A stretch of DNA of 61,078 nucleotides from Saccostrea cucullata (taxonomy: Eukaryota), in NCBI RefSeq assembly GCF_032062105.1, contig NW_026940900.1, forward strand, positions 62,001 to 123,078, read 5' to 3'. The notes beneath the pieces are model-generated. The model saw only the letters and a list, made by a program, of their open reading frames with translations. It was not told the DNA's origin and did not search any database. Made by a program: the position numbers and the translations under genes. Within the stretch, counting starts at the first letter, position 1; each line of letters opens with the position of its first letter. This document shows positions 28,001 to 38,739 of the stretch, piece after piece.

Positions 28001-31000
28001 CTTCACAGTACACAGAAGTCCTGTTACTAAAGTGATGCTGTCAGAGAGACACCTGGTGTCAGGTAAGAGCTCAGGGGAAGTAACGAGTATCTCTGTGAGA
28101 AAGTAGACATTGTCAAATTCTTAATTTCCTATTCGGGTTGTTTTCTTAAATAAAACCTGGAAACTTGATTTTTGGATATGATTTTTTTTCCTTGTTTCAA
28201 ATCATTGTTCTAATAGTATGGTTTTTTTTTTTCTAAATTCTTAGTATATGTATGTCAGTTTTTATGCTTAACAAAACTGAGATATTTATTGAATTTAAAG
28301 ATTTGCATGTGAGATTAATCCAAACCTGGCAAGGATCCGAGCTAATTTAGCATTCAGTTATTTCAGCAACAAAGATTTTGGGATAGATATTTTGAGCTCT
28401 GTACTCTGTTGTAGTGTGTAGTGAATATAATCATGTGAGGACATGGAGTGTGACCCGCTTCAGAGGAATGATTTCCACCCAGCCTGGATCCACTCCTCTG
28501 GCTTCTTTTAAGATCGTGTCTCTTGAAGATGTAGACCCAATTATCAGTTACTCTGCCAGCAATGATATTGGTAAAAAAACAGAAAATCTTAAAACACATA
28601 CCTTATAGGTGTCAGTTAAAGTAAAAAAAAATACAAATACTTGAGCAATGCCAATAAATTGCTTTTTAAAAATAAAAAATAAAAGAAATGTATGTCAAAC
28701 GACTGGTAATTTTTTTGGTCGTTATATAAACCTCAGTGATTCTTTCTTCTTCTATATTCGATATATACTATTTCTACATAAAATATCCGTTAGGTCCCTA
28801 TGGTGAGCAGGATGATCAGCAGGTTTTCATTCAGAAAGTTGTACCAGAAACCAATCAGCTGTTTATCAGACTTTCATCAAATGGTCAGAGGTATGCAAAA
28901 ATTATTTAGTACATATAATCAAAGTGAAAAATTTATAACAGGTACCCGTACTTGTATTTGTCATATTTGGATGATGGATTTATTATATACTATTGATTTA
29001 TTACATGTAAATGTATTAACATGTACATGTACTAACTACATGTACTGTAAAAGCATTTCATTTATCTCATTGTTAACAATAATCAACAAAATATAAATCA
29101 AACATGAAATTTTTATATGACTATATATTTAATAGGCTTACTTTCAAATATACGAAATTTAATGCCCATGAAACTATTTTAGATGACAATTCAATAAAAT
29201 TTTATCCCCACAAAGATTTGTGCTTCTACAGTATTTCTTGAATTATTATCTTTTCAGGGTTTGCGTCATTAAGTCGGTGGATAGTTGCAATATCAGTGCT
29301 TTCTGTGTTCATGAGTGTGAGGGGTCGAATCGTATGGGATCTCGTCCTCGACGATACCTCTTTACTGGTCATTCCAACGGAGCCATTCAGGTAAACCAAT
29401 AAATTAGGGATGGCAATCAAATACAGAATTCCTAATCAGTTAACCGCAACACATGCCGACCACTTAACCGGTTAATCGTATCAAAAATACATATTTTTTT
29501 TGACAATTTATTTTAAGTATCTCTATCCATATACAGTAAAACTTCTCTACACCGGCCAGCTGCCGGACTGAATAAAATGGTCGGACTAGAGGGGTGGCTG
29601 GTTTCCCGAGAATCTAACATATTGAAGAAATGCAGAACTATGTGACAGATGCTAGGAAAAATATTTAATATTGGTTTCTGTTATATTTATCTGTCAATAT
29701 GTTATTAATACATGTTGATTTTTATAAAAAGAAATTAAAAAATAAGAACAGAAAAAAAACATGGAAAGTTACTTTATTAACCATATAAGAAGAAATAAAA
29801 CGGACCCTTTACCTCAAGTGAACTCTATACAGAATACTGCATGTGTATCTGTGTATCGCTTACGTCATTAAAAAAAATTGTTTCTACTTCAGTTAAAAGT
29901 AAATAATTAAAACATTTCTGAGCAAAACTTCTGTTATTTTAATTATGAAATGTCTATTTTGGTAAACATTTTATTTTATTTTATTTTCTCAGTATTTTTT
30001 AACAGTTCCTAAATTTTAAGGCCGCTTATGTGTATTTAAAAAGATGATGCAATTTGGCGTGCGAGAATTTGTTGATTCATTCTGTGATTTAAATTTAATT
30101 ATTAGTCGCTTGATATTTTATTAATTCAAGTTTAATTGATATCAATCATATGTACACAGCTTAGACCGGCCATCTACGTAGTCTGGCACGATGACTACCC
30201 CTTCAAGACGGCTAAACAAAAGAAAACCCTATGAGGCCATATTCAGTTTTTCACACCTCTGACTTATCGTGGGTAGGCTATTTTTCACACTTCCGGCCGG
30301 TCATTATTACCCCTCTGGCCAATGACAGTAAAATTTCTTGCAATCAAAAAGTGGCCGGTATGATGAGGGGATATTTCCTACCTTTCTTAACTTTTGTTCT
30401 TGGAAAAGTGTCCGGTTTTCAGGGGTGGCCAGTTTTACGAGAGTTTATGTGTAAAGAAATGTTAATAATTTTGCCGGGACTTATGAATTTGGCCGATGTT
30501 CAGGGAGAACCGGTTTCCAGGGGGGCCGGTTTGGAGAAGTTTCACTGTATTATGCAAAAAGACTTCAAAAATAACGAAAGTTCAAAAAGTTTTATTTGTT
30601 TGAATCAGCAAAGTAAGGTAATACATATATTTTTTAATTTCCATGGAAAAGAAAAATTAAAGAAAAACATAGAAAAAAGCATAGAAAAATCATCGATAAC
30701 GTTAAGAGGTCACACATATTTTGTTTTTCTGCATTGTCACAAAAGCAGATTTAAGCTATAAATATGCCCTAAATTCAATTAACATGTTTGTTTAATTGAA
30801 TAGATTACTGAAAACAAAAAACATACCAATTAACAGAGCTTAGAGGGATTCATTTGTAATTATTAAAGAATTACAGTACTATCGGGGTAACAACATGGTG
30901 TTTACAAAGTGATTAACACCATACAAACTGACCAATTTACCCCAATGTCTTGATCCGGAGAGCCATAATTACCTCAAAATCAGCTTAATTAATTTTAAAA

Positions 31001-38739: not shown

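Follow-up and report, generated by a model that had tools for sequence, protein, structure and literature searches.

A B-box gene between two Helentron heads in intron 17 of Saccostrea cucullata KCTD3, with composite rolling-circle transposition as the favoured account of its arrival

In the oyster Saccostrea cucullata, an intact B-box gene lies in intron 17 of KCTD3 inside a 5.7-kb block (31080-36798) with two heads and a single tail of the HINE element D. This block interrupts another HINE, C, which is itself nested in a hAT-type MITE. From this architecture we infer, with somewhat better than even confidence, that the gene block came by composite Helentron (rolling-circle) transposition; the mode of arrival and the time order of insertions at intron 17 are both reconstructed from the present structure. 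The hAT ends most likely served as a passive frame, or landing pad, and not as the vehicle. All coordinates refer to the window, i.e. the whole stretch of 61,078 nucleotides that was analysed (contig NW_026940900.1, positions 62,001 to 123,078 of the forward strand). Its nested features are given below in positional order; those listed with no strand sign are unstranded.

29259..29390, + strand: exon 17 of the host gene KCTD3, from exon mapping of the annotated protein P0131, matching S. cucullata KCTD3 at 100%
29391..37344, + strand: KCTD3 intron 17, GT..AG, 7,954 bp; 125 bp when the element and one TSD are subtracted
29397..29404: left TSD, 8 bp, from sequence match
29405..29533: left part of the hAT-type MITE, with TIR (29405-29415) and subterminal TTAACCG motifs, from sequence
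29534..30547: Tc1/mariner-type MITE of 1,014 bp with flanking TA dinucleotides; TIR arms 89% complementary, no ORF of transposase length
30550..31037: interior of the hAT-type MITE; X1 and X2 contigs about 86-88% identical, depth at least ~10 times that of the flanks
31038..31079, + strand: head of HINE C (5' subTIR and IR), interrupted at a T-run; from sequence and intact relatives
31080..31469, + strand: HINE D copy 1 (D1), head and two partial monomers, without the 3' end; 90.3% identical to copy 2, loose ends past 31469
31470..32182: further repeat fragments in the cargo; high depth, contigs X2 rec13, X1 rec2 and X9 rec20
32332..34065, - strand: intact single-exon CDS of 577 aa, B-box / coiled coil / NHL-type propeller, TRIM-like, from Pfam and alignment; AATAAA at 32276 and 32193
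34116..35404: mariner-type element of 1,289 bp with flanking TA dinucleotides; TIR arms 93% complementary, no ORF above 64 aa
35405..36012, - strand: predicted promoter and non-coding first exon, with a donor-like GTAAGT at 35663; the acceptor immediately precedes the ATG
36013..36798, + strand: HINE D copy 2 (D2), complete, with subTIR, IR, microsatellite, tandem monomers, 3' subTIR and palindrome; from sequence and loose ends in X21
36799..37086, + strand: body of HINE C, with microsatellite, repeats, 3' subTIR and hairpin; from sequence and intact relatives
37087..37225: right part of the hAT-type MITE, with TIR (37215-37225); X1 contig 37153-37334 crosses the junction
37226..37233: right TSD, 8 bp, from sequence match
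37345..37395, + strand: KCTD3 exon 18, from exon mapping

The annotated KCTD3 protein, mapped exon by exon onto the window, comprises 20 exons, and the reading frame of exons 17 and 18 is joined across intron 17. Several other introns of the gene measure about 90-130 bp. The original prediction placed the start of the element 14 nt past the exon-17 donor, in agreement with the exon mapping, and estimated an intron of about 125 bp without it as against about 8 kb; the measured lengths are 125 bp and 7,954 bp. Intron 2 of KCTD3 (12290-22800, ~ 10.5 kb) is packed with stacked HINE-like repeats, and repeats are also present in intron 16 at 29001-29258, where depth is 813 and 19,168 compared with 29 and 110 in the preceding bin. 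Immediately 3' of the gene, at 39392-40380, there is a further HINE-like element containing a 146-bp tandem array.

The outer unit in intron 17 is 7,821 bp long. Its TIRs are complementary at 11 of 11 positions, each occurs once in the window, and similarity ends at about base 12-13; the TSD, CAATAAAT, matches at 8 of 8 positions. A hAT unit with intact TIRs and a perfect 8-bp TSD, as proposed originally, is thus borne out by measurement. TTAACC-type motifs recur near both ends of the element. Removal of the inserts leaves 754 bp plus a few shared T, without coding capacity, consistent with the predicted size of ~ 0.76 kb. In order-2 Markov replicates of the window (n = 30), the combination of an 11-bp inverted pair and an 8-bp direct repeat appeared once in total, compared with two occurrences in the real window. 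The second occurrence, at 12839-13848, was rejected as a hAT element, being composed of two HINE head hairpins; repeats can thus mimic a hAT signature, and caution is due in hAT calls based on pattern. The signature of the outer element differs in kind from this mimic.

Four of 24 listed sequencing runs were used for read comparison, the highest share of window words in any of the 24 being 0.24; in the four used, HINE repeats dominated the mapping. The interior of the hAT MITE is multi-copy in runs X1, X2 and X9. In bins lying mostly or partly in the outer element, the first of which takes in 44 bp of the Tc1-type end, summed depth (which is not copy number) is 270 and 217 in X1, with flanks of 21-29, and 3,563 and 1,868 in X2, with flanks of 56-110. 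One X1 contig follows the interior up to 31041 and then departs, as expected of a copy without HINE C. The X1 contig that crosses the right TIR and TSD differs from the window by 7 letters and 7 gap letters, while exon 17 of the same run carries 4-6 differences of synonymous type. Since the right-end junction is common to the window and to this divergent oyster run, the hAT insertion is shared and old. Calculation shows that the 19 paired end bases are expected to stay identical in 31% of cases at 3% divergence per copy, so perfect ends are no sign of youth and do not conflict with an old insertion.

A strict hAT-end motif gave no matches in viral and genome contigs, collections with almost no oyster DNA. 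In metagenomes it gave two (L001 and L002), both representing the same locus of one non-oyster animal, where one end is identical, the far end, at 737 bp, is degenerate and the flanks agree at 6/8, a level that 31 of 4,523 8-mers at the locus match equally well. The element in question (L002:3120-3856) is situated in an intron of an EF-hand gene; its first bases reproduce the 11-bp end and the subterminal motif of the outer element, and its other end may lie 737 bp further on. Looser motifs returned 86 and 5 matches that look like chance, and none resembled the sequence of the outer element. Across 98 scanned loci, no TIR pair with a TSD match of at least 6/8 was found within the limits of the script, and in genome G001, a bacterial MAG, the TIR matched at three places, each lacking a far end. 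An autonomous hAT partner was not found in the viral, genome and metagenome collections, which hold almost no oyster DNA, and the superfamily call is for this reason a structural one. As judged from sequence, a hAT-type assignment of the outer ends is supported by the 8-bp TSD, the short TIR, the interior that is multi-copy in three runs, and the recurrence of the end motif at a single locus in another animal. The outer TIR presumably resembles Ac/Ds-type ends.

Both inner elements listed as Tc1/mariner-type have a TA duplication, TIRs of 25-30 bp and no coding capacity, as is characteristic of Tc1/mariner-type MITEs. Contigs of X9 stop matching at their borders, at 30549 and 35408. The mariner-type element sits within the predicted 5'-UTR intron of the B-box gene. 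An ORF of 181 aa at 30216-30761 was rejected as a gene, as it has no Pfam match and spans an element boundary. Rfam gave no matches.

Elements C and D both show HINE anatomy: a 5' subTIR, IR and microsatellite, and a 3' subTIR and palindrome. C itself is inserted, without a TSD, in a T-run of the outer element. A scan with the C-tail motif returned 12 matches, 3 of them true relatives, all in animal-like contigs of one bacterial MAG. Two of these relatives (L011 and L014) are intact, with the head joined directly to the microsatellite, and the remaining one is truncated by the contig start. The window holds both complementary halves of C on the two sides of 31080-36798, with no duplication and no loss. 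The intact relatives thus represent the empty-site form, according to which the 5.7-kb block bounded by D ends is placed exactly in the T-run of C, as HINE insertions are. The outer head and the distal tail delimit the inserted block exactly.

The two D copies are 90-93% identical (90.3% over 335/371 columns). RNA reads of X21 exit the window exactly at the ends of D2 into mixed flanks, 1,559 at 36013 and 2,342 at 36798. HINE D is extremely abundant, its summed depth reaching 1e5-1e6 (a depth, not a copy number). Monomers of D1 and D2 share a variant segment (31393-31410, 36330-36350, 36500-36520) in which most mapped reads differ, and the two may accordingly be sister copies of a minor subfamily. 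At least two repeat fragments, absent from the list given in the original prediction, lie between D1 and the 3' end of the gene (31470-32182); one ends in a short CA-rich tail and may be SINE-like. A scan with the D head gave only an 18-base match at three viral loci, which were rejected. Genome G001 contains animal-like contigs (L010, L011, L014, L021, L022) on which HINE copies and a B-box-like gene are found, indicating that this bacterial MAG is probably contaminated with host DNA; no HINE motif was found near its B-box gene (21% identity).

The boundaries and the split of C agree with the nesting order predicted originally, namely KCTD3 intron, hAT MITE, and within it a Tc1/mariner-type MITE and C, the latter enclosing composite D, the TRIM-like gene and the mariner. 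They likewise agree with the proposal that the gene sits within more than one set of transposon ends.

Pfam identifies B-box and NHL-type domains in the 577-aa protein and no RING domain; it is thus TRIM-like and not a canonical TRIM. The start methionine is invariant across 40 aligned rows. At columns conserved in at least 90% of rows the protein has 9 departures, which fits the range of 0-25 seen in 31 paralogs of the oyster B-box / coiled-coil / NHL (TRIM-like) expansion. Near the predicted first exon we observed a paralog-like contig (35469-35680) and 2 RNA reads at 35725. Because an acceptor precedes the ATG, a donor-like site is found at 35663 and polyadenylation-type signals follow the stop, the sequence makes it likely that the gene is a DNA-level copy with a predicted 5'-UTR intron.

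Homologues comprise 800 matches at E 0.001 or better. The closest relatives among the matches listed are full-length paralogs with 84-86% identity and a fragment with 88%; no twin at 90% or more is present among the protein matches listed, and the 90% cluster has one member. In S. echinata, orthologs of KCTD3, Tam41 and Costars (96.6-97.8% identical) share a 33.26-Mb scaffold. In a comparison that covers annotated cluster representatives among the matches listed, none of the S. echinata B-box rows maps to this scaffold (0 of 19 in the best 120 of 800 matches, 0 of 7 in the best 120 of 170), and the nearest B-box relatives of that species among the matches listed are on scaffolds of 3.6 and 1.28 Mb. 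A quick tree of 43 rows places the protein inside a cucullata-only clade of 13 rows (SH-aLRT 97). In contrast to its nearest relatives in the expansion, mostly found several to a scaffold, this copy is alone, antisense and within an intron. Given the cucullata-only clade and the lack of a listed paralog on the syntenic scaffold, we regard the gene as a dispersed member of a clustered family. At one paralog locus, two annotated isoforms (P0002 and P0005) have different N-terminal halves and the linker is duplicated in one of them, a pattern that the splicing together or merging of two tandem paralogs in a single gene model would give.

According to the favoured account, the hAT MITE would have landed long ago in the 125-bp intron, and the Tc1-type MITE and HINE C would have inserted into it afterwards. 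The donor would have been a locus of the clustered B-box family, with a tail-less D on one side of the gene and a full D on the other. Helentron Rep/Hel, acting in trans, would have started at the outer head, passed through the gene and ended at the sole tail, and the resulting unit would have integrated at a TT site in C, the hAT element being already in place. Several features are consistent with this sequence of events: C is split exactly, the target is T-rich, there is no TSD, and the subTIR, IR and palindrome are as in oyster HINEs, for which the sections consulted of PMC7492417 describe the same anatomy, T-rich targets and absence of TSD. The old hAT landing, with the X1 contig crossing the right junction, and the dispersed position of the gene point in the same direction. 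Two 5' ends combined with one 3' end are a predicted composite product in the available part of PMC5148889, and composite transposition is proposed for HINE-linked gene duplicates in that of PMC4067079. Gene capture does not seem to be common, since the accessible text of PMC7992393 reports gene fragments in only 17 (2%) Pacific oyster Helitrons, with no autonomous copy found. With the closest paralogs among the matches listed only 84-86% identical, the event would be old or the donor lost. Neither a donor locus nor another copy of the block turned up in the short contigs of the four runs mapped.

The main rival of the composite account is homology-guided repair, which yields an identical structure. 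The gene could have entered without a transposase if a full D was already resident in C, suffered a break and was mended on the template of an ectopic D that had a B-box gene beside it; gap filling or ectopic conversion would then have brought in the gene together with another D head. We consider such repair possible, if rather unlikely. Apart from leaving the same end structure as composite transposition, it would find plentiful templates, given the extreme abundance of D (summed depth 1e5-1e6), as well as copies as alike as D1 and D2 (90-93%); the gene appears to be single-copy, and transposition-independent gap filling explains most single-copy animal Pack-TIRs according to the part of PMC8277862 available. 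It would, however, need ~ 4.5 kb in one copied tract, and a resident-only allele (C plus one D) is not among the 15 joints listed (2,322 further); nor do these 15 include a joint of an empty intron or of an empty C. Joints linking D1 to D2 in reads are expected from any other D copy. We find it highly improbable that an assembler switched through D repeats to another locus and back. The window does lie on a 123-kb contig of a fragmented assembly, and the stretch is spanned by no single record of the four runs mapped, but a chimera would require two switches, at repeats that measure 390 and 786 bp and are no more than ~ 90% alike, and the annotation of this contig includes the gene, its ORF intact. 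Just as hard to sustain is the idea that the gene is old at this position and that independent insertions on either side merely look nested. The 14% protein divergence from the nearest paralog among the matches listed would suit it, but it would leave to coincidence the agreement of the TSDs, that of the TIRs and the exact fit between the two halves of C, and no listed S. echinata paralog is on the syntenic scaffold.

The original prediction raised transport as a Pack-hAT by a hAT transposase acting in trans. On this reading the nest was put together at another site, and the entire 6.5-7.8-kb unit has been, or can be, mobilised by such a transposase. The perfect 11-bp TIRs and 8-bp TSD, the multi-copy state of the hAT family and the host gene (577-aa ORF) between the TIRs are in line with this, and an animal multicopy example, hAT-N8_XT with 291 bp of cargo, is given in the excerpted text of PMC8277862. 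The same text counts only four (1.4%) animal Pack-TIRs as multicopy, and the cargo here is ~ 10 times the vehicle. Perfect ends have no bearing on youth (31% at 3% divergence per copy), the right junction is common to the divergent run X1, and interior relatives are 86-88% identical. The protein has no twin at 90% or above (cluster of one member; 86% at full length and 88% for a fragment are the closest among the protein matches listed), and an autonomous partner is missing from collections with almost no oyster DNA. The prediction had also held that, if no second cargo-bearing copy existed, the nesting would be passive; no second cargo copy was found in the runs mapped or among the protein matches listed, which by that measure points to passive nesting. 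Pack-hAT transport is therefore not upheld, and we judge it improbable. We are equally doubtful of a relay with two vehicles, in which a composite Helentron took the whole B-box gene and promoter into the hAT MITE, and hAT transposase then carried the 6.5-7.8-kb stack into the KCTD3 intron.

Each layer of the nest has described counterparts. C and D are like Cg_HINE and DINE-1-type non-autonomous Helentrons, which in the portions seen of PMC7492417 and PMC4067079 have a 5' subTIR, IR, microsatellite, central tandem repeats, 3' subTIR and palindrome, a T-rich target, no TSD, and insertions into other repeats. Those portions report no oyster HINE pair around a whole intact gene and its upstream region, whereas here a 5.7-kb block has two heads and one tail. 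The D block is also similar to composite FoHeli Helitrons, which according to passages of PMC5148889 have several heads and one tail, a form explained by initiation at the outer head and termination at the first tail; in them, self-insertion produces a duplicated 5' part that is usually < 200 bp, in contrast to the 4.5 kb of host DNA with a gene between the heads observed here. In animal Pack-TIRs, including Pack-hAT-N8_XT and Ssk-FB4, host-gene sequence likewise lies between TIRs and a TSD that belong to a degenerate DNA transposon; nearly all are single copy, as this one appears to be (PMC8277862, in part). They differ in that the gene studied here does not abut the TIR element, lying two HINE layers deeper, and no multicopy state with distinct TSDs was found. 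The outer element shares its 8-bp TSD and short TIR with hAT MITEs (Tol2/Tel2) as presented in the available text of bioRxiv 10.64898/2026.01.12.699174. It also has the repeated subterminal motifs and lack of coding capacity of hAT-superfamily MITEs. In the literature covered, with subscription journals mostly outside it, no paper links oyster HINEs or Helitrons to the movement of B-box genes, and the accessible part of bioRxiv 2020.09.15.298695 has no passage on B-box, NHL or Helitron. Nested transposons, HINEs, composite Helitrons and single-copy Pack-TIRs have all been described already, and the present locus is a clean new example and not a new system.

The nest documents, to the base, the passage of a complete and apparently intact gene from its family clusters to an antisense position in a housekeeping gene. 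Should composite HINE movement be confirmed here and at other oyster loci, it would offer a testable route for dispersal and presence/absence variation of bivalve B-box families, one not predicted by the survey in PMC7992393, whose consulted part gives 2% of Helitrons with gene fragments. The hAT frame is useful mainly as a dating layer, as alleles of the 0.76-kb form would order the events. Pack-hAT transport, for which no support was found, would if true rank among the rare animal cases, with a full gene as cargo, and a relay, if true, would turn nested transposon ends into stacked shuttles by which intact members of fast-evolving gene families are scattered in oysters.
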